From the NCBI GenBank assembly GCA_000934665.2, contig JYFJ02001344.1, positions 1 to 64,000 of the forward strand: a stretch of 64,000 bases of DNA, read 5' to 3'. Source of the DNA: Catajapyx aquilonaris. Lineage: Eukaryota. Position numbers and translations under genes: made by a program. Below, piece by piece: positions 13,641-60,598 of the stretch. The first letter of the stretch is position 1, and every line of letters begins with the position of its first letter. The notes beneath the pieces are model-generated. The model did no database searches and was not told where the DNA came from. It worked only from the letters and a program-made list of their open reading frames with translations.

Positions 13641-15484
13641 TAGGCTACTGTAAACTTCTTCAGTATATCCAGTATATGTAAGTAGAGACTAGAAGCTACG
13701 TAAGTGAATACCGTATACGCGTAGATCGGAGTCTGTATATTTATTACAAGGAGGGACAACCTAACATGTCGTGGCTTAACTAAAACATGGCTCGAACAAC
13801 GTAACACTCGACTTACGTATCGCTGAACGTAAGTCAGGAACCGGCCGTACTACCCGCAGGCTTGCTCCACCGGGCAACATCCGAAGAGTTAATTCCATTT
13901 TCCCTGGCGGTGGCAATAATTGAATCGTCTGCAATTACAGGGCGCGTCCAGATGCCACGAAGAGGTCCCCCCTATATACTTCCTTAGTTTCCCCTCAGTG
14001 GAAATTCAGTCCAGGACTATCTCCCTTTGTTCAGTTCCTAAGGGAACAAAACGGGAATTATAAGCTCTCCTTGTCTCCTTCTCTCTCTACGGGACGACTT
14101 ATGGTGCGGCTCGCGTTTCCCATCAACACTCGCGGGGGTTTCCTATTTCAAATGAGTCGCGCGCTGTCTTACACAGACGCCCAATTACACTCGGAATGCC
14201 TGAACAGTTTTTATCGGATCGAGGACCCCCATCATCAAAGGACAGACTGCTGGTTGGTCAAAGCATCCACTTGGAAGGAAACACACTTTTCGACCACAGA
14301 AAGGCAGCACCATGCAGTCAGATCCTTCAGTACATGCTCACCACATTGACTGGATCATTCTGAAGAATAATGGCTGCCAAGATGGCCACTCACCCTTTGA
14401 AGTATCCCCATCAATATGAATGAGTTAATCAATCAAAAAAAAAAGAAGTTGGGGACAGGTTAGGCTCCCTAGAGACACTAGAGATTGTGTGACCTCCACC
14501 ATTTTTGATGTTACGACTCGCATGTATTGTGGGGGGAAAAAATGCGATGGACTGTGAGGAGCTGATAACAAAATCCGGTAAATGATGCGGAGATGGGAGG
14601 TCGATCCGAGGTCCAGATAATCTTATGACCTTTTTTCCCCCTCCCTGAATTTGGGGACCTAGGCTTGTGTGGACCCCCGGACTGATGACTCTTCTGGGTG
14701 TCATTCCAAACTCCAGGAGAGGATTGCGAAAAGATCATTTGCACAGGGTGGCAAGAATGGCACCAGAAGATAGCTCATATTGTTAAGTTTAATTTGAGAT
14801 AATGCAATGTGGCAAAAATGTGAAGTTTCGCAATGGTATTAGGACAAACAAAAAATAATCTCAATATTAAAAACAAAATTTTAATTAAAGCCCAAATGTT
14901 ATTGAATCCACTCACAATTGACTTGATTACATTTTTTTGCTATCTGTACGACCCTGTAATTAGCAAAGATGGGAGGGGGAAGCTGGATTGCTTTACAGCA
15001 ACCATAGTCTTTCCCCTCCTTCAATTTTCTTCCCTAACTTTACATCGCCCTACGAAGAAGAAAAAAAAACTGTTACAAAAGTTGAGTCGAGACAGCAATC
15101 TTCCGAGGTTGAATCAAGGGAGCAATGACTGTAGGGGACTTTAAAAAAAATAGGGTCATGGCACAGCGCAATTTGGACTTAACATTCCTGGAGATCTATT
15201 CCGTTTTCTTAAATCTTTTATATGGCTCCAGACCATTCACCACGGACATCCTAGGAAAAAAAAATAACAGTTTGTTACAAAGTCTGAGAGTAAATTGGTC
15301 AAAATGTGTTGGACAACATTTGTTTCCAGTTTATTACTAAGACAATGAGCATCATTGCTGTATGTCCTACTCTTCAAGTATGACATCTTGCTTCTGTGTT
15401 TCTATTTTCTTGCGACGCCCCGGTTACCGTCAGCGGTTCAGATAAATTATTGAGAATAGAATCGCCCCTGTTTGGGACACCTAT

Positions 15485-23376: not shown

Positions 23377-24759
23377 ATGGAGTCGTTCCTGTTGGCATGC
23401 AAAGTCGGGAATGTGCAGACGGTGCAGACGCAGATGGAACTGGCTGGAGGTGTCCATGCGGCGATGCAGATTGCGGATTGGGTCGGGTGCGGAGGGCTTC
23501 ATTATGCCGTGACTTGGGGTAGCGAGGAGGTCGTTTCCTTCCTGTTGCGTCAAGGGTGGCCTGTGGATCACCGCGGCGGACAGAAGCAGATGACCCCGCT
23601 GCACTGCGCAGCCAAATTCGCACGCCCGATGATGGTGCTCATGCTGCGTACGATGGGTGCAGACACAGTGGCTAAGGACGCAGACGGTAAGACTCCGGTG
23701 GATCTGGCCCGCGAAAGTGGGTGTTTCGAAGCGATCCATGCCATGGAGGTAAGCTCTGAAAATTATTAGCAACATATGCTACAATTTTAGGCACAGATTT
23801 CAGAAGTTCAGCGGTCGCCTGCGGTCGCTCCAGTGCCTACAAACTGTCCGGCACCACGACAAAATTCGTGCATTACCCAAATAGTATGGGAGTGGTACAA
23901 CAGCGAACGGTGGGTCGAGTACACATCGGGTATCAACTCATGCGCAATTGAAGCGCTGTACATGACAAACCCATCCGGACTTGTCGCCTTCACGTCCGCC
24001 AACGGTAGGCACTACCAGATAAATCTCTGCACAAAGATTCAGACCAACATGGAGACGCAGCATAACCGCGAGGTACGCCGCACCGAGCTTATCACATACA
24101 CCAAACCGCCCTCGGACAACTATCCAGACAACTGGGAACCCATGACAGATGGACACAATCTTCAAGTTTTTATAGTTGCTCAAGGTTCGCCCGAGTTCGC
24201 CTCAATCGCCCAGCACTTCCGGGGTCAGAATGTGAGCCTGGTATTCCGCATCCAAAACAAGCATCTTTGGCAGACCTATCGGCTGAAGTGGGAGATGTGC
24301 CGGTTGGACGAACGCCGGTTGTTCCACGGGACATCCCGGATGTCCGTGAAAAGCATTGCGGAAAACAACTTGGACTGGCGGTTGTGCGGGAACAAAGTGG
24401 GGACGGCATACGGACAAGGAGTGTACTTTACATCGGACGCTGCGATGGCTGCCAGGTAAGATCGTACTTGCTCTTTATGTAGTGGTGAAAATTAATGGAT
24501 CGCCACCTTTACATGAAGCTTGTTTTAATGGTCTTTAATATGCAGGTACTGTCCGGACAAGCCCAAAGTAATATTCTGCTGCCGGGTCATGATCGGCAGT
24601 AAGGTCAAAGGCACCAGCTTGATGCAACGGCCGCCGCCTAATCCCGCCACAGGTCGACTGTACGACACAAGCGTGAACAACATCGAGGATCCGTCCATAT
24701 TCGTCAAGTACTACGACAACACGTTTGTCCCCGAGTATCTAGTCCAGCTGGACAATTAG
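23377..24759 (+). CDS. Ankyrin-WWE-PARP catalytic domain protein (PARP11/12-type mono-ADP-ribosyltransferase)
   Basis: Exons 23377-23748, 23791-24455 and 24546-24759 join in frame. Ankyrin motifs (GLHYA, TPLHCAA, GKTPVDLA), WWE (WEWYNSERWVEY...YQINL...QTNMETQHNREVRR) and ART core (LFHGT, YGQGVYF, YDTSVNN, PSIFV, PEYLV) with an H-Y-I triad. Confidence 0.9.
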
Positions 24760-50211: not shown

Positions 50212-51249
50212 ATGGCTCAGATGCAGTCTGCTGTGACCACACCAGAAGTGGAGCCCTTCTTCTTCCAGTGGACCATTGAGAAGTTCAGCCTCCTGAAGGA
50301 GATTGGGAGCGTCAAGTCTGATCTGTTCCACACGTTTCATCCCGTACCGGCCAAGTGGCAGATGGTCCTGCATCCGAAGGGGATCGGCGAAGGCTCACCA
50401 GACCATCTATCACTCATACTAAACTGCAACGTACCGCAAATAAGCAAGGCTGAACTGCCGGTCATAATATGCACGATGACTATTAAGAGCACGGGTAACG
50501 AGGATTACAGGACGGAGCCGTTGGTCAAAGATTTTTTGAAGTATCACTCCAGCAGCTTTGGTACAAACCGGTTCATTAGCCTCAGAGAGTTTGAAGAAAA
50601 CGCTGGGTTATTACTACCGGGCGATACACTCACTTTAATATGTAAGGGCGATATAGTCATTAAGGTCAATCAGGCGAAGGGACAGCAGCGTAAGCAGTCG
50701 ATTGATATTCCAGCTTCGGGTTTGTTAAAGGACGTTGAGAACATGCTGGTGTCTGACGTCGGACGGGACGTAACATTGGTCGCTGGCAACTCCGAGTTCG
50801 CTGTGCATAAGTTCATACTGTGTGCACGTAGCCCTGTGTTCGCTGCCATGTTCGCTCATGATACGTTAGAGAACAGTACAGGTAAAGTCGTAATCGAGGA
50901 TGTCGAACCGACTGTACTGGAAGGTCTGATTTATTACGTGTATACGGACAGTCCGCCGCCAAATATCCGGGACATTGCGGGCGATTTGATGGCTGCGGCT
51001 GATCGGTATGAGCTGCTGCGGCTTAAGGCCATATGCGCTGCACAGTTGGTTAACGCCCTGAAAGTAGATGATGTCCTGTCGGTACTGAGCTTTGCGATAA
51101 AGTTAAACTGTGACCAGCTGAAGAAGGTTTGCCTCAGGTTTACGAAGGCGAATATCGAGGAGGTCGTACACAGCTCTTCGTGGCGAGACGTCGAGTGCGT
51201 GTCTCGTGAAGCATTGGCTGCCGTTACCATGTACGTTGCTAGGAAATAA
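50212..51249 (+). CDS. SPOP-like MATH-BTB protein (intronless CDS)
   Basis: FQWTIEKF...WQMVLHPKG (MATH); DVTLVAG...HKFILCARSPVFAAMFAH...LMAAADRYELLRLK (BTB); acceptor ttttcag just upstream of the ATG. Confidence 0.92.
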   Translation: MAQMQSAVTTPEVEPFFFQWTIEKFSLLKEIGSVKSDLFHTFHPVPAKWQMVLHPKGIGEGSPDHLSLILNCNVPQISKAELPVIICTMTIKSTGNEDYRTEPLVKDFLKYHSSSFGTNRFISLREFEENAGLLLPGDTLTLICKGDIVIKVNQAKGQQRKQSIDIPASGLLKDVENMLVSDVGRDVTLVAGNSEFAVHKFILCARSPVFAAMFAHDTLENSTGKVVIEDVEPTVLEGLIYYVYTDSPPPNIRDIAGDLMAAADRYELLRLKAICAAQLVNALKVDDVLSVLSFAIKLNCDQLKKVCLRFTKANIEEVVHSSSWRDVECVSREALAAVTMYVARK

Positions 51250-51685
51250 TTACTGCTGAGATTGGAATTTTATAGGAATTTTTGTAACATAATGGTTCGA
51301 TGTAACGTACTAAATGTAGCGCACATATTCAACAGTCATTATAAGAAGCTCTATTAACATGTAGACAGTATTATTGCACAGTTCATAGAATTGCAAAAAC
51401 ATTATAAAAATTTGCAATGTCCTTAACATTTGTGCCAAGTGTATGATACGTACCGATGTTGTCTGCTAACATTTAGAGAATATAAAAGTCATACTGTTAT
51501 TGCCCTGTCTTTTTCATAGTATGTGTTATCCATGTTCTGAATATGTACTCGTCTTAATATTTTTTCTGCCAATGTAATAATAAACCATTACCTTCATGTA
51601 CATGTCATAATTGCGGACAAGAAATCGTTTAGATATTGGCTGAAACAGCTTTATTTATTACATAGGATGTTTTCGATAGCAGCGG

Positions 51686-53461
51686 TTATGAAAGTAAATT
51701 GAGTACTCTTCCAATGATTCTCTGAAAATAATATTTTAGTATATTAATATTAATTAATAATAATTTGTAAATTATGAACTTACAGGTGGTACGAAATCAA
51801 GCAGTGCTCCCAAGACGCCCTGAAAGCCACAATATTTTATCGTTAAGGAAATAATTATTCGTAAACACATAGTGTATAATTACATAATTAATGCTTGCAT
51901 GTTAATTAGTATTATCTTACAGGTGGTCCTCGTTATAAGTTGAAATGGTGTGACAATATTTTCAAGTCCCCAGTAGGAGTTACGAGTTTGAATAATTTTC
52001 ATTTAATTGTCAATTATGCGATGACTTACGTCTAGATAAAAATTGTTCGAACAAATTATGATGTGCAATTTCAGTCACATAACGAAGACTGCCTGTGCAG
52101 ATATTTTCTTAATGATCATACAAGTTGCGGTATTGTCTGTCATGTTGGTGCGTACATTGGTAGTGCTGTACTGTACTATTCTGCCATTAAGCGGTTGGGT
52201 CGGCCTGTAATTCCTTGTAATTAGCCCATCTGGACCCTGCAGCTTCCGAAACTCTGCCAGCTTTTAACCAGATCATATTAGCATAATGTCACATTAAATT
52301 AACCCTAAATTGTACCTGCTTCCAGGATATTCTGACACTTTGTTGCATAACGAACCAAGTGACAACCTCGTTACAGTCTGGTGTCGTTAGCGAGCCTTTG
52401 TAGGTGAAGAAGTTTGATTTGTACTGTGGCATCAGGAGATTGAGAGAGATGGGCTGGCCTTGGATTGGGGCGGACGAACCTGCACTCCGCACATTCCCCA
52501 AGGCATTAATGATCGGGCTGAAGTCCCAGTTGTCGCTTCCTTGAATCTGAAAAATGATGTTAATGAGTCAGTCCGGCTTAAAAGAACGGACAGGTGCGAC
52601 TCACATTGAACAGAATACTGATGACCACAAGACCGTCCTCATTCTGCAGGGCCTGTGGGGTCGTTGCGTACTTCTTGTTACGATGCACCAGATGCATCTC
52701 CAGCGGACGGCTGCGACATGAGCAAATGTTTACTATGGTTTTGAGTACATGGCATCTTGTGACTCACGGCTGGCCATTTATGGTGTGCTCGCTTCCAACG
52801 CGATCATTTTCACCCCAGTGGAAATGAATGTTCTGAAATACGTAACTACCCGATGGCAGGTTACCTCCAGATACTTCAGGTGTCGGCCCGTTCCATGTTG
52901 CTGTTACATCAGCTGTGTTGTAGAGTATTGTTAAATTATTAATATGCAGATAAATTTGTGCTACAGGTCGTACCGCCATATCCGACATTTTCAAGTCTGG
53001 CTGATGCCATGTTCGCAGAGTATCCGCTGGACAGCACCAGTGCTGGGACCCGGGCACGTGTAACCTCGGAGGTCACAATGTTAATCGGTGACTGTCTCCT
53101 GCCTCCAGAGTTGCAGAATCCTCCCCAAGTATTAGGACCTGGCAGACAAACATATATGACCACTTATGGCTTACAGATATTTAAGAAAAAATTGAGCAGA
53201 GACATTACCGTTATTTGGACCATAACCCACTACTGCACTCATAACTATCTGGCCTGAAATAAATATAAACCATTGTTGGGTATAAAAAGAAGAAACTTTG
53301 CCTTTTATAGTAATAGAACTGAAACAGTTTATCACATATTATAATAATTCACAATATAATATTTTTAAATGTAATATTATAACAAGTTGGATATTTTAAA
53401 TACCTTGTCCCAATAACATGGCCAGCACGATACAGTGGTATCGAATCCTATTGTTACCCAT
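51686..53461 (-). CDS. Alpha-carbonic anhydrase, copy 1 (signal-peptide-like N-terminus, multi-exon)
   Basis: [24 protein letters not shown]...[37 protein letters not shown] spread over short GT-AG exons; small 3' exons approximate. Confidence 0.88.
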
Positions 53462-54267
53462 GTTTCAGCAGAGACAAAGTGTGTGTTACAATAAATCACT
53501 CTCGTTGCGAACACTGCAATGCAAACTCTTATCCAGGTTTTCCCATGCATTATATATAGATGCAAATCCCATGCGCAATCAGTTCGGCGCTCCGTGTGCC
53601 AATATAAGTAAAGTAATTGCAGGAATTTTTATTGCCGCTATTTTACAGCTAAAAGTAACGATGAAGGTGTCTTTGGGTGATTGGGAAAGGGAGTAGGTGA
53701 GGCCACACTACTATTGTTGCCTCGCCAATAGTTCTTCTGGGGCGCCAACGTAAAATGCGCGCAAAATATTTTTGGCATTACAGCTGCACCTGATATGCAA
53801 TAGAAAAAAATAATTATTCGTGCAAGGAGTTAATTTCAATGTTACCCCACGGATTTAAGAAGCAATATTCAAGCTGCACATGTGCTGTGCAACTTAATAG
53901 GCCACAGCCGCCTCCTTCCTTTCCTATCCTATCCCAAAAAGCGCAGTAAAAACGAAACGAAGTGTTCCAGTCAAAAAAATCCTCCTTAAAGAGCCGCCGG
54001 CTGATAACGGGGTATGAATTATTATATGCTGTGCAACTGGGGGCCAGATTAGAGCCTCTCTAGGCCAGACACGTCAAAGTGCTGCGTATCAGCGTATGTC
54101 ACGTTTCAAGTGCAAATTGAGCAGTAAAATTTTGTGCAGAGGTCGTGTCACACAAATCGGCATGAAACGAACCTATTACGACACGAACAGTGCGAAGAAT
54201 ACAGTTACTAGCTTTAAAAATATACATATAAAATGTTACGATCCTGCAGAATTTATGAGGCTAATTA

Positions 54268-54617
54268 GGCCATATCAATTCAGGGAGGCAAAGAAAAAAC
54301 CTAACCTTCATAGTCTCAGATGTTTTTGAATGCAACATAATTATGTTAAAATTCAGGAAAAAATGAGAAATATTTGTAAAAATCTTGTGAAAAATATTTT
54401 AAAAGCTGGTTTCTTACCTTTTTCTGAATTTTAACATATTGTATGTTAAAATTCAGAAAAAGTAAGAACCCCGCTTTTAAAATTTTGTTCAAAATTTTTT
54501 TACAAATATTTTATTTCTCATTTTTTCCTGAATTTTAACACATGTTAAATTCAAAAAACGTCTGAGACTATGAAAGTAACCCCCCCCCCCCCCCCCTTGC
54601 CTGNATTGATATGGACC
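54268..54617. mobile_element. Palindromic MITE-like insertion present only in duplication copy 1
   Basis: ggccatatcaat...attgatatggacc termini with long internal inverted arms; absent at the paralogous site ~58885. Confidence 0.65.
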
Positions 54618-55919
54618 AGGCCACGGACCAGGCCATGAGGGAAATTTCCAGTTGCCTTATGGAGAGGTGTGTTACCTGGCAGGTGGACGCCGCCATTTTA
54701 GATCCACCTCAAGAAACACATTTTTTTGGAAAGAAATTTATTACGGCTTGTTTAGATTTATTACTATAATATTTTACATTTATATCGCATTAGTAATTCC
54801 TATTATAATATTACAACATTATATTTATATGATATTATATATTATATTGTACAGTATTTATATTTTGTTATATTTAGAGTGTATTATTTATATATCTTAT
54901 ATTTAGAGTGTATTATTTATATATTTTTATATTTAGAGTGTATTATTTATATATTTCTTATATTTATATTATATTATATTATTGTTATACCTATATACTT
55001 ATATTATTTATATATTATTACATTACATTATATATTATATTATATACATTATATTACTATATTTATATTATATATTATATACATTATATTACTGTATATT
55101 ATGTTATTTATGTATTTTTTCTATTTATATTATATTATTTATATATTTGTTATATTTATATTATATTATTTATATATTTGTTATATTTATATTATATTAT
55201 ATATTTTTGTTATATTTATATTATATATTTTTGTTATACTTATATATTTATATTATATATTTTTGTTATACTTATATATTTATATTATATTATTTATACA
55301 TTATATTACTATATTTATATTATGTTCAGATTTCATTAATTGTATTTAATTTTTTATTAATTATTATAAGTCAAGTCTTTAGTCTGGCACAAACCAATTA
55401 ATCTTTTACCGTACTTCCGTACGTACCAATAACTCTTTATCGTGAGATCCTCACTCAACTGTTTTGGCATCGTGACTCTCTGCTGAGCAATATGCGTATT
55501 CATTACCGATTAAATTAATAATAATTAACTTATTAATTAATGAATTAATACTTAAGAAAAGATAGGGAAATCAATCTCTGAACTTTCACTGCTCGTGCCC
55601 CCATTGGATCAGGGTAGCCAACCCACTTCTACCGTCCACTACCGTATCATTCTGTCCGCGACTCCATAGACGCGCCTAGTGGCCGGCGATGGAAACATAG
55701 CACTGTCTATAAATTTCGGTAATTTGACGCTTAATTTACAAACATTGCGCACTTGTGATGATGTCTAAAGTGTGCAGTAGAGTCTCCTTTACGGGAGAAA
55801 TCAGGACCGGTGCTCGAATGTGCATTGGTGTAATTGCAGACTCCTGATGAGCTGAGTACTATCGGTTTATAGCACGTCCTCTGTCGGTTTGTAGACGTCG
55901 TCCAATGCCTCAAAGTGCT

Positions 55920-56320
55920 ATCGCTTCTCGGCCTGTTGAACAATACCAAAATGAAGATGCTGAAAGCTCTGGAGAAGCTGCCCGTACTGGAGAGACTAGT
56001 ACTAGTGCTGGTCGCTCTACTGCGTGCCGTTCTGGAGATGCCGGACAGGGACACTCTGCATATGCCACCCTTTACATCTCTACAGGACCTGCTACTACTA
56101 CTGCTGCTGTTGCTGGGGCTACTCCTAATGATGGTGCTACTGGTGCTGGTGCTGCTGGTGGTGCAAGGTCTGGCGGATCTAATGGGTCGGTTGCAGCAGT
56201 CCTTGCCTTGGCACTAACTACAACAGGGTTGATCTGGCATTGCAGTACCGCCAGAATCAGCTCGCCTCTCCTTCCATGGAAGGGGAGAGAGAGCCTCTCC
56301 TTCCATGGAGGGAGAGGCCA
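55920..56320 (+). other. Chimeric U2-derived gene: U2 5' end + ~290-nt non-U2 insert + U2 SL IV + duplicated 3' hairpin
   Basis: ATCGCTTCTCGGCCT at 55920 downstream of a U2-type promoter; SL IV gggttgatctggc-attgcagtacc-gccagaatcagctc at 56226-56263; no branch-site or Sm sequence. Confidence 0.85.
55951..56217 (+). CDS. Putative 88-aa Leu-rich membrane microprotein inside the U2 shell
   Basis: First ATG after the U2 +1, in CAAAATG context; the stop is 8 nt before SL IV; hydrophobic segments LVLVLVALL and LLLLLLLLLGLLLMMVLLVLVLLVV. Low complexity, so coding status is uncertain. Confidence 0.4.
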   Translation: MKMLKALEKLPVLERLVLVLVALLRAVLEMPDRDTLHMPPFTSLQDLLLLLLLLLGLLLMMVLLVLVLLVVQGLADLMGRLQQSLPWH

Positions 56321-56518
56321 CATTTAAAAAATCAAAAATCAAAATTTTATAGTCTCTGCCTCCATTTTGTCCGGGGTGAGTCATCACTAGTGTCATTATT
56401 GTATGGCTTTCGGATGACCGCACCAGTCCCGATACATTCGAAGGAAACAATATCACTCAATGGATTGGCGAAAAAGAGCTTTATTTATTACATAGGACAT
56501 AGTCTATAGCAGGTGCAG

Positions 56519-58209
56519 TTATGGAAATGAATTGAGTATGATTCCAATGATGCTCTGAAAATAATATATTAGTATATTAATATCAATTAATCACATGTAA
56601 ATTAATTATGAACTTACAGGTGGAATGAAATCAAGGAGTGCTCCCATGATGCCCTGAAAGCCACAACATTGTATCATTCGTAAGCACATAGTGTATAATA
56701 ATTACATGATTAATTCTTGCATGTTAATTAGCATTATCTTACAGGTGGTCCTCGTTATAAGTTGTCCCTTAAGCTATAAAATGCTGTGACAATAATTTTA
56801 AGTCACCAATATGGGTTACTAGTTTGTCAGAATAATTTGCATTTAATTGCCAATTATGTTATTGGCAAATGCAATTTCATGTCACATAATGAAGACTGCC
56901 TTTGCATATTTTATGATCATACAAGTTGCGGTATTGTCTGTCATGCAGGTTCATACCTTGGGAGTGCTGTGCTGTATTATTCTGCCATTACGCTCTTGGA
57001 GCGGCCTGTAATTCCTTTTAATTGGCCCATCAGGACCCTCCAGTTTCCGAAACTCTGCCAGCTTTTAACCAGATCATAATATTAGCAGATTGTCACATTA
57101 AATATTAACCCCTAAATTATTGTACCTGCTTCGAGGATATTCCTACTCCTTGTTGCATAACAAACCAAGTGACAACCTCGTTACAGTCTGGTGTCGTTAG
57201 TGAGCCTTTGTATGTGAAGAAGTATGATTTGTGCCGTGGCATCAGGTGATTGAGAGAGATGGGCTGGCCTGCGATTGAGGTGGACGAGCCTTCCATCCGC
57301 ACATCCTCCAAGGCATTAATGATTGGACCGAAGTACCAGTTGTCGCTCACTTGAAGCTGAAAAAATGTTAATGAGTCAGCGGCTTAAGAAGAGCAGACAG
57401 GTGCGACTCACATTAAACAGAATACTGATGACCACAAGACCATCCTCATTCAGGAGGGCCTCTTCGGTCGTTGCATACTTCGTGTTACGATGCACCAGAT
57501 GCATCTCCAGTGGATAACTGCGAAATGAGCAAATGTTAACTATGGTTGGGTATACATGGCATCTTGTGACTCACGGCTGGCCATTTATTCTGTGTTCGCT
57601 GCCAGCACGATCATTTCCACCCCAATGGAAATGAATGTTCTGAAATTCGTAGCTGCCTGATAGGTTACCTCCAGATAATTCAGGTGTCGGCCCGTTCCAT
57701 GTTGCTGTTACATCAGCTGTGTTGTAATACAAATATTATTAAATTATTTATATGCAGATAAGGTGCTACAGGTCTTACCGGCATGTCCGTCGTTTCCAAG
57801 TGTGGCTGATGCCATGGTTGCAAAGTACCCGCTTGACAGCACCAGATCTGGGACATGAATCCCTGACACCTCGGAGGTCACAATGTTAATCGGTGACTGT
57901 CTCCTGCCTCCAGAGTTGCAGAATCCTCCCCACGTATCAGGACCTGGCAGACATACATACATGACCATGTGGCTTATTACATATTTTAAAAGGAAAAAAA
58001 TAATTAGTAGAGACATTACCGTTCTCTTCACCATAACGCACTGCTTCCTGCATTGACGGAACTATCTGGCCTGAAATAATTCACAATATAATAATTTTTT
58101 AAATGTAATTATAACAAATGGGATATTTTAAAATACCTTGACCCAATAATAGTGCCAGCAGGATACAGTGGTATGACTGCTGGTATCGAATCCAGTAATT
58201 GTCATCCAT
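56519..58209 (-). CDS. Alpha-carbonic anhydrase, copy 2 (tandem paralog)
   Basis: Same exon structure as copy 1; [20 protein letters not shown]...[20 protein letters not shown]; paralogy extends through the upstream region to ~59100. Confidence 0.88.
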
Positions 58210-60598
58210 GTTTCAGCAGAGACAAAGTGTACACGACACGTGCAACAAATCAATCACTCTCGTTGCAAACACTGCAATGCAAACTCTTATCCAGGTTTTA
58301 CCATGCATTATATATAGAGGCGCGAAAAAAAATTGCGTGCAAATCGCATGCGCAATGAGTTTGGCGCGCCGTGTGCCAATATAAGTAAAGCAATTGCAGG
58401 AATTTTCATTGCCGCGCTTTTACAACTAAAAGTAACGATGAAGGTGTCTTTGGGTGATTGGGAAAGGAGTAGGTGAGGCCACAGAATACTTTTGCCTCGC
58501 CAATAGTGGGGTGCCAACGTAAAATGCGCGAAAAATATTTTAAGCATTACGGCTGCACCTGATATGTAATAGAAAAATAATTATTCATGCAACGAGTTAA
58601 TGTCAATGTTACCCCACCACGGATTTAAGAAGCCATATTCAAGCTGCACATGTGCTGTGCAACTGCGGGGGGCCAGATTAAAGCCTCTCTAGGCCAGACA
58701 CGTCAAGTGCTGAGTATGTCACGTTTCAAGTGCAAATTGAGCAGTAAAATTTTGTGCAGACGTCGTGTCACACAAATCGGCATGAAACGAACCAATTACG
58801 ACACGAACAGTGCGAAGAATATACGATAAACTCGTAGTTGCTAGCATTAAGAAAATAATAATTAAAAGTTACGATCCTGCAGATATACTTATGGGGGAAA
58901 TTTCCAGTTGCCTTATGGAAAGGTGTGTTACCTGGCAGGTGGGCGCAGCCATTTTGGATCCACCTCACAGAGACACAAATTTTTGAAAGGAAATTTATTG
59001 CGGCTTGTTTTGATTTATTACATAATTTTACATAGATTTATATCACATTAGTAATTTCTGTAATAATATTTTAACATTATATTTATATTAAGATTATAAT
59101 ATTGTACAGTATTTATATATTTTGTTATGTTTATATAATATACTTATATTATATTACTAGACTTTATTATATTTTGTTCATATTTATTATATTTTGTTCA
59201 TATTTATTATATTTTGTTCATATTTTATTATATTTTGTTCATATTTTAATATATTTTGTTCATATTTTATTATATTCACACTTATATTTATGTGTGTATT
59301 TATATTGTGTTCATATTTTATCATATTTACATTACTACATTTATACTTATTATTATTTATATTTATGTATCACATGCGTATTTATACTATTCACGGTATT
59401 ATATTATTTACTGTTTAATTTTACACTTATTATTCATTATATTGTTATATGATAATTCCGTATTTTGTATCATTCATATTATTATTTTGTTTACGATATT
59501 ATATTATCTTATTCGTGTCGTTTTTATAATTTATTTACATACCAGTATTCGCATTATTTACACCATATTTATATCTTATATTTACATTATTTATGTGTTG
59601 CTTTTTAAAATTATTATTATTAGAGTACGCAGCATTTCATATTTACATTATATCTATATGTTGATTAATTTATTTCCTCCTTCATTGTGCATTTCCCTGG
59701 AGCTCTGACCTGTAGCCAGCATCTGCATAGCCATATTTTGCAAGAACGTGCGAATTTTTTTTAGCGAAAAAAGTTCATCGACATGATCACGTGTATTTCG
59801 GAGAATGAGTGACACCTGGCTTATTCACAAACAAGGAAAAATATTTAAGCATCACCAACTGTGCATATAGGCATTCTTGGCAGGCCAATTAATTGCCAAA
59901 AATATGTCCCATTTTTTCTTGCAAAAATAGGTACCAATCAGAGCGTCCCCTTCTGGGAATTATTAATATGCCAGAAAAGACATTTAAATAAAAAAATTCC
60001 ATGGCAGCAGCATTGTAAATTTTAACTATGCTACAAGCAACACATGTTCTCCTTTGAAGTGCGTCATGCAAAGGTGACGACGACGTAAGGCATTTCCTGA
60101 AGGGGCAACAATGTGCACTGTATGCAAAGCAATTTTTATAGGCTACTAACGTCACCCGTTATTAATTTTTAAATTTTTCCCCTGCCATTGTATGCATGAG
60201 TGTGTATACTAGGTACACTACGTACTCCAGACACTAATATTTAATATTAAGACGAAAAAGTATAATAATGAGTTATAACTGAGCCTTTAAATCATTAAAG
60301 GAAATAATTATAATTAACAGTTTAATTATAGCAACCAATTATAATTAAATTTATAATCACAACAATAAAAGTTAAAATAATTACAATTACAAAATAATAA
60401 AATAATTACAATGATAAATTTATAAAATAATTACAATGATAAATTTATAAAATAATTACAATGATAAATTTATAAAATAATTACAATGACAATTTTAAAT
60501 AATTACAATAAATAATATCAATGACATTTCAGATATGTCTAACAATAATTTTTTATTATTATTATTAATATTATTAATATTATTATTGTTATTGTTAA

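Follow-up and report, generated by a model that had tools for sequence, protein, structure and literature searches.

The snRNA (small nuclear RNA) pseudogenes and variants that arise by DNA-mediated duplication keep the flanks of the gene from which they derive, as do, for example, the human variant U1 and U2 loci. The snRNA retropseudogenes mediated by long interspersed nuclear elements (LINE), such as the U6-mRNA chimeras and the 3'-truncated U2 copies, consist of snRNA pieces joined to other transcribed sequence, the snRNA standing on the 5' side or being reduced to its 5' part; they have no promoter or flanks and usually carry A-tails or target-site duplications. The HSUR genes of Herpesvirus saimiri reuse a snRNA-type promoter and 3' signals and have a microRNA hairpin after the 3' stem; these genes are viral, possess an Sm site and have been shown experimentally. 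Here, a locus is described in a stretch of 64,000 nucleotides (nt) from Catajapyx aquilonaris (assembly GCA_000934665.2, contig JYFJ02001344.1, positions 1 to 64,000; hereafter, the window), in which the promoter region, the first 15 nt and the 3' end of a U2 snRNA gene surround 290 nt of unrelated DNA. This locus, which was flagged in an earlier inspection of the stretch (the original prediction) as a U2 "shell" and is called here copy D (unit 55484-56430), is most likely a snRNA pseudogene whose body was cleanly replaced and which belongs to a cluster of U2 stem-loop IV modules, i.e., a real, unusual-looking relic.

Like the DNA-mediated snRNA gene duplicates and pseudogenes, copy D has a defective body between flanks that retain homology on both the 5' and the 3' side, and it may be transcribed; its homology was found to extend into the untranscribed 5' and 3' flanks of the real gene. 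Unlike the snRNA pseudogenes, it has not undergone point decay or truncation, as its internal 130 nt were cleanly swapped for 290 nt, with the ends and the hairpins spared. The assignment to the LINE-type snRNA retropseudogenes was rejected, because copy D has the promoter and the 3' flank and carries no A-tail at the junction between the insert and stem-loop IV. Unlike the hairpins of the HSUR genes, the 24-bp hairpin at the 3' end of copy D is a by-product of a 29-nt duplication.

The Sm-less U1 genes constructed by Fuke and Ohno (2008) resemble copy D, as far as the available part of that report goes (PMC2241894), in the arrangement of a snRNA promoter and 3' signals around an insert of 200-300 nt; those genes were engineered and assayed in Xenopus oocytes, whereas copy D is a natural locus known from sequence. 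The Utopia and Keno retrotransposons (Kojima and Jurka 2015; PMC4640811, also available in part) likewise leave a U2 fragment downstream of the DNA that was inserted, the junction being fixed at the 3' side and variable at the 5' side. However, their junction lies at nt 38/39 of U2 vs. about nt 141-149 here, and there is no retrotransposon sequence at copy D. Defective snRNA variants that are transcribed are described in the accessible part of a further report (PMC12667742).

Loss of the U2 Body in the Shell Locus

The intact U2 snRNA gene of the window, copy A (43009..43202, plus strand), was matched by the Rfam family RF00004 at 159.3 bits (E 3.8e-33) and was the sole Rfam match in the whole window that reached a gathering score (46 bits for this family). 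The offsets given below are relative to the U2 start, which is 43009 in copy A and 55920 in copy D. The U2 5' end ATCGCTTCTCGGC is present twice in the window, at 43009 and at 55920, against 0.01 occurrences expected by chance, and the two bases that follow it in copy D (CT) agree with the Rfam consensus. Thus, the first 15 nt of U2 (55920..55934, plus strand) are preserved in copy D, 13 of them being identical to copy A and the next two matching the consensus. Beyond this point, U2 nt ~16-148, which comprise the branch-site sequence, stems I-III and the Sm site, have been exchanged for 290 nt (55935..56224, plus strand) of strongly period-3, partly triplet-repeat DNA with no similarity to U2.

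The Rfam search of 54000-58000 returned 11 sub-threshold matches at E<=10, with no U2 among them. In the motif search of 55920-56330, neither the branch-site GUAGUA, nor the 3' side of stem I with the U6-pairing region, nor stem IIa was found with 0-5 mismatches allowed according to the motif, and both the Sm site ATTTTTGG (one mismatch allowed) and a loose Sm pattern were likewise absent from the same interval. In the control, all the motifs searched in copy D were recovered in copy A, with the Sm motif of the latter at 43110. The U2 start of 15 nt followed by a foreign insert of ~290 nt, and the disappearance of the branch site and the Sm site, which had all been claimed in the original prediction, were therefore borne out. 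To judge from these losses, copy D is unable to make U2; failing the U2 covariance model, such a shell would escape the annotation pipelines.

The Upstream Region Shared with the Intact Gene

The plus-strand segment 55484..55919 of copy D is a U2-type upstream (promoter) region, recognized by its similarity to the region upstream of copy A. In the nucleotide alignment within the window, 55533-55932 and 42610-43021 were 71.0% identical over 421 columns (E 1.6e-53), in agreement with the ~430 bp of U2-type upstream sequence proposed originally. The upstream stretch shared by copies A and D amounts to ~435 bp, and its left edge is marked by CTGAGCAATAT, at -437 in copy D and -425 in copy A. Three motifs stand at equal offsets in both copies, namely CTATCGG at -61, TGTAG at -30 and TATAAAT at -212. 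The first of them is the motif likened beforehand to the proximal sequence element (PSE), and its unchanged offset of -61 was confirmed. However, the excess conservation of this element over its flanks, on which the original prediction had also counted, was not observed: the segment -70..-45 around CTATCGG was 69% identical vs. 62% for the proximal 204 nt. The PSE-like segment is therefore without real excess conservation, and the strongly conserved element of the upstream region is a distal block. CTATCGG itself is only "PSE-like", as the window contains no further snRNA gene by which the PSE of the organism could be defined.

The distal block (-310..-205) occupies 55610..55715 on the plus strand in copy D, including TATAAAT at 55708-55714, and 42699-42804 in copy A, and 97 of its 106 ungapped columns (92%) are identical in the two copies, vs. 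62% identity, with 0 gap columns, in the proximal part (-204..-1). The windowed identity along the upstream region of A and D showed a variance above that of all 2000 permutations. Throughout the window, the 22-nt and 27-nt cores of the distal block are confined to the A and D loci. The block matched no Rfam family at E<=1, and its 22-nt core had 0 matches in the prokaryote-genome collection and 0 in the viral contig collection. It may represent a distal enhancer or a separate element. The freedom of the proximal promoter from gaps argues for a constraint on its spacing in both lineages during most of the time since they parted; such a constraint is what a working U2 parent of copy D would predict and need not imply selection on the shell itself.

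Just downstream of copy A, at 43369-44080, nested inverted and direct repeats with an identity of 73-78% were observed, which have a foldback-like look.

Stem-Loop IV, the Doubled Palindrome and the 3' Flank

Behind the insert, copy D returns to U2 with stem-loop IV (56225..56264, plus strand), in which 12/12 pairs are standard and the loop, ATTGCAGTACC, is nearer to the Rfam consensus than the loop of copy A. The segment 56225-56289 is 86% identical to 43157-43219 over 65 columns, and the stem-loop folds at -18.1 kcal/mol (z -3.97). In the alignment of four copies of this element, i.e., copies A and D and the relics B and C described below, the 12 pairs of the stem were standard in 97.9% of the cells. 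Relative to copy A, copy D has one pair in which both partners are replaced (C-G in A, U-A in D) and three in which a single partner is replaced. The paired changes read originally as keeping the stem were thus upheld in so far as the stem is kept and one change is two-sided, but they are not distinguishable from shuffles, since with only four sequences the observed value was reached in 60/500 of them.

The stem-loop is followed by a tandemly doubled 3' palindrome (56264..56318, plus strand), whose copies lie at 56264-56292 and 56293-56318; the doubling, together with stem-loop IV and its canonical loop, had been noticed beforehand and was found as described. The second copy is identical at 25/25 positions to 43196-43220 of copy A. 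The two palindrome copies of copy D differ in 3 of ~28 columns (two gap columns and one further gap) and have 27-28 shared bases. Jointly, they are able to form the 24-bp hairpin (-49.4 kcal/mol, z -6.9), which dominates the fold of the putative whole transcript (z -5.6) and whose scores with the microRNA models were sub-threshold (27.7 bits vs. a gathering score of 74). The search of the palindrome in metagenomes yielded two loci, both of them chance matches in unrelated sequence, and no U2.

The 3' flank of the U2 unit (56319..56430, plus strand), with the A-rich box AATCAAAAATCAAAAT and with GACCGCACCAG, is common to the relics B and C and not to copy A. With relic C, it shares two identical stretches, of 19/19 and 12/12 positions, at 48967-48985 and 49028-49039, respectively.

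The Insert and Its Open Reading Frames

The insert holds an 88-codon, Leu-rich open reading frame (ORF; 55951..56217, plus strand), which, as claimed in the original prediction, opens at the first ATG, in the context CAAAATG, and stops 8 nt before stem-loop IV, with the ATG at 55951 and the TAA stop at 56215-56217. The composition of the insert differs strongly between the codon phases, with G at 50/96 positions of one phase and T at 53/96 positions of another, and a degenerate CTG/GCT array was located within it by the Tandem Repeats Finder (56089-56164). Because this three-base periodicity is very strong, another frame of the plus strand, whose translation is rich in Ala, Gly, Thr and Ser, is stop-free as well, and two of the minus-strand frames have one stop each. 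Both caveats attached to the insert at the outset, its low complexity and the second open frame of Ala, Gly and Thr, proved to be justified.

The ORF frame remained open in 6113/20000 phase-preserving shuffles (31%), and a first-ATG ORF of at least 80 codons was obtained in 90/5000 mononucleotide shuffles. Both stop-free frames of the plus strand depart from the usual choice among synonymous codons: among the Leu codons of the ORF, CTA makes up 33% vs. 4% in the local genes, and the T-ending codons are far more used in the Ala/Gly/Thr frame than in the local genes. In the homology searches, 0/433 word-sharing candidates passed for the Leu-rich ORF and 0/674 for the Ala/Gly/Thr frame at E<=0.1, and no Pfam family was assigned to either plus-strand frame of the insert. 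The Atlas protein search gave no usable match, the recognition value being 1178, below the 2300 reached by most real families. The comparison of four insert frames with the window by tblastn returned low-complexity matches only, and no further copy of the insert was found in the window. The sole HMMER match among 1.84 billion cluster representatives, P0060, was rejected as spurious, being a 15-fold tandem-repeat translation in which a stretch of 11/45 was counted repeatedly. Accordingly, there is no support for selection on the ORF. On the other side, the periodicity suggests, on our reading of it rather than as the result of a test, that the insert was derived from a coding sequence, and the Ala/Gly/Thr frame, as we read it, follows the G-nonG-N coding pattern and ends in a short hydrophobic stretch.

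The U2 3'-End Relics and Their Common Left Edge

The profile of stem-loop IV and the palindrome found four full copies in the window, all of them on the plus strand and within 13.3 kb. Besides copies A and D, these are the relic B (45504..45660, with stem-loop IV, palindrome and flank; full copy 45504-45593) and the relic C (48890..49039; full copy 48890-48976), both delimited by profile and alignment, which are 91% and 94% identical to copy A, respectively, over 63-67 nt. Partial copies of the module (stem-loop IV and palindrome) lie at 56293-56316 and 45632-45660, and the remaining profile matches at E<1 were minus-strand images of the palindrome and one weak match at 14976-15025 (E 0.66). 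The partial copy 45632-45660 belongs to relic B, where the 3' strand of stem-loop IV and the left palindrome arm recur 94 nt downstream, which echoes the tandem doubling in copy D. The Rfam U2 match of relic B was weak (24.3 bits, below the gathering score) and rested almost wholly on stem-loop IV. Decayed U2 sequence was not found upstream of B and C, where both the nucleotide and the purine/pyrimidine-collapsed local alignments stayed within the range of shuffles. The relics B and C and copy D have 3'-flank features with no counterpart in copy A, including a 13/13 identical stretch between B and C. Since the 3' flank is shared among the three and not with A, they appear to derive from a U2 gene of a type other than A.

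The similarity to U2 starts with GCCGCCG in relic B, with GCCG in relic C and with AGGG in copy D, that is at about nt 141-149, within ~8 nt of one another, either at the 3' strand of stem-loop III or a little inside it; the fold of this stem has -21.1 kcal/mol. The sequences to the left of the three modules are mutually unrelated. B and C may not be independent, and the shared edge rests on two or three events; by our rough estimate, such an agreement of the edges would arise by chance in ~8% of cases with two events and in well below 1% with three. An Ank-kinase-Ank gene, consisting of the ORFs 45948-46961, 47206-48318 and 48279-48890, lies between B and C. Relic B stands 364-453 nt upstream of the ATG of this gene, and relic C starts with the last base of its TAG stop, so that the module is found in direct orientation on either side of the gene; the motif ATTAAA occurs at 49095-49100, ~205 nt past the stop.

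A cluster of downstream U2 fragments calls to mind the U2-targeting mobile elements, such as the Utopia and Keno retrotransposons or a Dada-type transposon, of which the insert of copy D would then be a truncated member. According to the part of PMC4640811 that was available, the junctions of these elements are precise on the 3' side and variable on the 5' side, and what remains is often no more than the downstream U2 fragment, which would suit the modules described here; in the same source, the fragment left after an insertion of Utopia or Keno begins at nt 39. Such an insertion is contradicted by the junction of the modules at about nt 141-149, the three modules are preceded by sequences that have no relation to one another, one of them being the kinase/ankyrin gene, and the insert bears no Pfam domain. 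The footprint of a mobile element is therefore regarded as extremely improbable.

An RNA-mediated origin would take the position of the edges as its starting point. A reverse transcriptase acting on a read-through pre-U2 would stall at the foot of stem-loop III and switch its template, and the resulting chimeric cDNAs would be used in break repair and, at the shell, in the conversion of a resident U2 gene. The location of three left edges within ~8 nt at the 3' strand of stem-loop III is what such stalling would produce, and the coding-like, period-3 character of the insert fits as well, relic C and copy D both joining coding-like sequence to stem-loop IV. However, the 3' flank of the modules reaches at least 50-130 nt past the mature U2 end, and the modules have no A-tails, the junction of the insert with stem-loop IV included, and no clear target-site duplications were seen by eye, with no formal test made. 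Moreover, the gene upstream of relic C is distributed over three frames (45948, 47206 and 48279) and is therefore probably intron-bearing rather than a cDNA, and the shell keeps ~435 bp of untranscribed promoter. Such an origin appears quite unlikely to us.

Two further observations concern the surroundings of the relics. Directly after relic C, at 49112-49945, there is an AT-rich tandem array, whose copies are offset by ~50-60 bp and are 75-87% identical. The U2-relic region is flanked by MATH-BTB (SPOP-like) paralogues in opposite orientation, at 39900-40910 (minus strand) and 50173-51249 (plus strand). The best database relatives of the MATH-BTB protein, mostly arthropod SPOP-like proteins, are only 27-44% identical, and the organism is therefore poorly sampled.

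The Duplication Junction and Other Neighbours

The shell is placed between the two copies of a 3.7-kb duplication (no strand assigned), of which copy 1 (51643..55370) ends ~110 nt before the shell and copy 2 (56473..59623) starts ~40 nt after the shell 3' flank. The 1.1 kb between these copies is thus made up of the U2 unit and ~110 and ~40 unassigned bases. The duplication copies are 82-83% identical by blastn and 85.7% identical by MAFFT, and in each of them there is an alpha-carbonic-anhydrase gene (Pfam PF00194), which lies on the minus strand and has introns, along with a low-complexity tail rich in A and T. The divergence between the two palindrome copies in copy D is of the same order as that between the copies of the duplication; this agreement would fit a single event, for which it is weak evidence.

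Palindromes and repeats are error-prone in assembly, and the shell might accordingly be suspected to be a chimera of mis-joined reads. The four DNA sequencing runs that contained all the sampled words were made from a single sample, from which the window may itself have come, and so are not independent of it; a fifth run contained next to none. On the other hand, the parts of copy D diverge from copy A (71% identity upstream and 86% in stem-loop IV), so the locus is no collage of A, and the flanking copies of the duplication have themselves diverged. An assembly artefact is for these reasons hardly to be credited.

Within duplication copy 1, a near-perfect 80-nt hairpin at 54400-54479 scored 47 bits vs. 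the plant MIR6288 on both strands, the gathering score being 74; it is likely to be a small inverted-repeat element and not a microRNA. Elsewhere in the window, a WWE-PARP fragment was found at 23791-24459.

Origin and Possible Expression of the Shell

On balance, copy D is probably a U2 pseudogene that was produced by a template-switch rearrangement, was born dead as U2 and inherited its intact-looking parts. Its parent would have been a U2 gene of the second flank type, as in the relics B and C, and not of the type of copy A. A rearrangement at the DNA level would have removed U2 nt ~16/20-148 and put in ~290 nt of unrelated, coding-like low-complexity DNA, presumably templated from some coding sequence, with the return to U2 at the foot of stem-loop III, whereas the promoter, the first 15 nt, stem-loop IV and the 3' flank would have been left unchanged; one slip at the palindrome would have duplicated the 29-nt segment. 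The polymerase may have stalled and switched templates at the adjacent hairpins, i.e., stem-loop III, stem-loop IV and the palindrome. It is also possible that the rearrangement and the 3.7-kb carbonic-anhydrase duplication were one event, because the 1.1-kb unit occupies precisely the point where the two copies of the duplication join. We infer this mechanism, its timing and the absence of function from the anatomy of the locus, the loss of the U2 elements, the junction, the relics and the lack of support for the ORF, which are matters of observation. The spacing of the promoter, the compensatory pair of stem-loop IV and the canonical loop would then be an inheritance from the working parent and no sign of selection on the shell. 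If the promoter fires, a capped RNA of ~350 nt would arise, with no Sm site and no evident function, and would be cleared as a defective snRNA or, being long enough, exported in the manner of an mRNA.

Several observations weigh against an inert pseudogene. The promoter has remained gap-free over 204 nt, with the three motifs at equal offsets, despite 38% substitutions, while the neighbouring 3.7-kb duplication, only ~14% diverged, shows 20 gap openings per kb (61 in 2999 aligned columns), and the 92% identity of the distal block is not what an old, neutral shell would lead one to expect. The parts derived from U2 show no damage, as seen from the 12/12 pairs and the consensus loop of stem-loop IV and from the 25/25 identity of the second palindrome. 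The first ATG stands in the context CAAAATG, and its ORF fills 264/290 of the inserted bases and ends 8 nt before the stem, with a codon score of 0.21, in the range of the Pfam-supported ORFs of the window (0.18-0.24). The common left edge of the three modules could also mean that stem-loop IV and the 3' box were kept as a unit for function, and the locus, assumed here to be silent, may be transcribed. The intact-looking promoter and stem-loop IV are, however, explained equally well by a recent descent from a working U2 gene.

The same features, namely the kept promoter spacing and distal block, the perfectly paired stem-loop IV with one two-sided pair change and the consensus loop, and the first-ATG ORF that spans the insert with a codon score like that of the local genes, would be expected of a working snRNA-type gene, in which the U2 promoter and 3' signals drive a capped, non-polyadenylated RNA of ~350 nt. 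Its product would be either a noncoding RNA that binds the stem-loop IV proteins U2A' and U2B'', or a short mRNA for the 88-residue hydrophobic peptide. In the available part of PMC2241894, the U1 genes that lacked the Sm site and carried cDNA inserts of 200-300 nt were transcribed from the snRNA promoter in Xenopus oocytes, and their transcripts were exported mainly by the mRNA pathway; the ~345-nt snRNA-type transcript of the original prediction, translated or acting as a new noncoding RNA, is therefore mechanistically possible. Nevertheless, a single such locus exists in the window, an open ORF is to be expected from the composition (31% of shuffles) and has an atypical synonymous usage, and neither a credible homologue nor a domain was found for it, with the Atlas value of 1178 falling short of 2300. 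The doubled palindrome, in addition, shifts the A-rich box ~29 nt further from the stem, and the degradation in human cells of defective snRNAs without proper protein binding, as described in the accessible part of PMC12667742, counts against the accumulation of such a product. A working shell gene is thus considered unlikely.

A related claim is that the modules of stem-loop IV and the 3' box act as 3'-end cassettes for neighbouring genes, for which the start of relic C at the stop codon of the kinase gene would speak. However, this gene need not use a U2 module for its 3' end, having ATTAAA ~205 nt past the stop. The wider proposal, in which the U2 parts would be kept as a natural cassette for a capped, non-polyadenylated, Sm-less RNA of ~350 nt that would be long enough for mRNA-like export and would either encode the 88-residue peptide, of a membrane type, or titrate the stem-loop IV proteins, and the module would have spread as a portable 3'-end unit bracketing the kinase gene, is very doubtful.

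Implications

Expression of the shell, if it occurred, would provide a counterpart in nature to the engineered constructs in which foreign sequence was placed between a snRNA promoter and 3' signals, and the shell would be a rare cellular gene born of snRNA gene parts. Such constructs served, as described in the available part of PMC2241894, the study of the sorting of RNA polymerase II transcripts by length. As it stands, the rearranged U2 pseudogene matters mainly for genome dynamics: the four modules on one strand, the three left edges at the foot of stem-loop III, the two local duplications and the one junction suggest that the hairpin-rich 3' end of the U2 gene is a hot spot of template-switch rearrangement in this genome.

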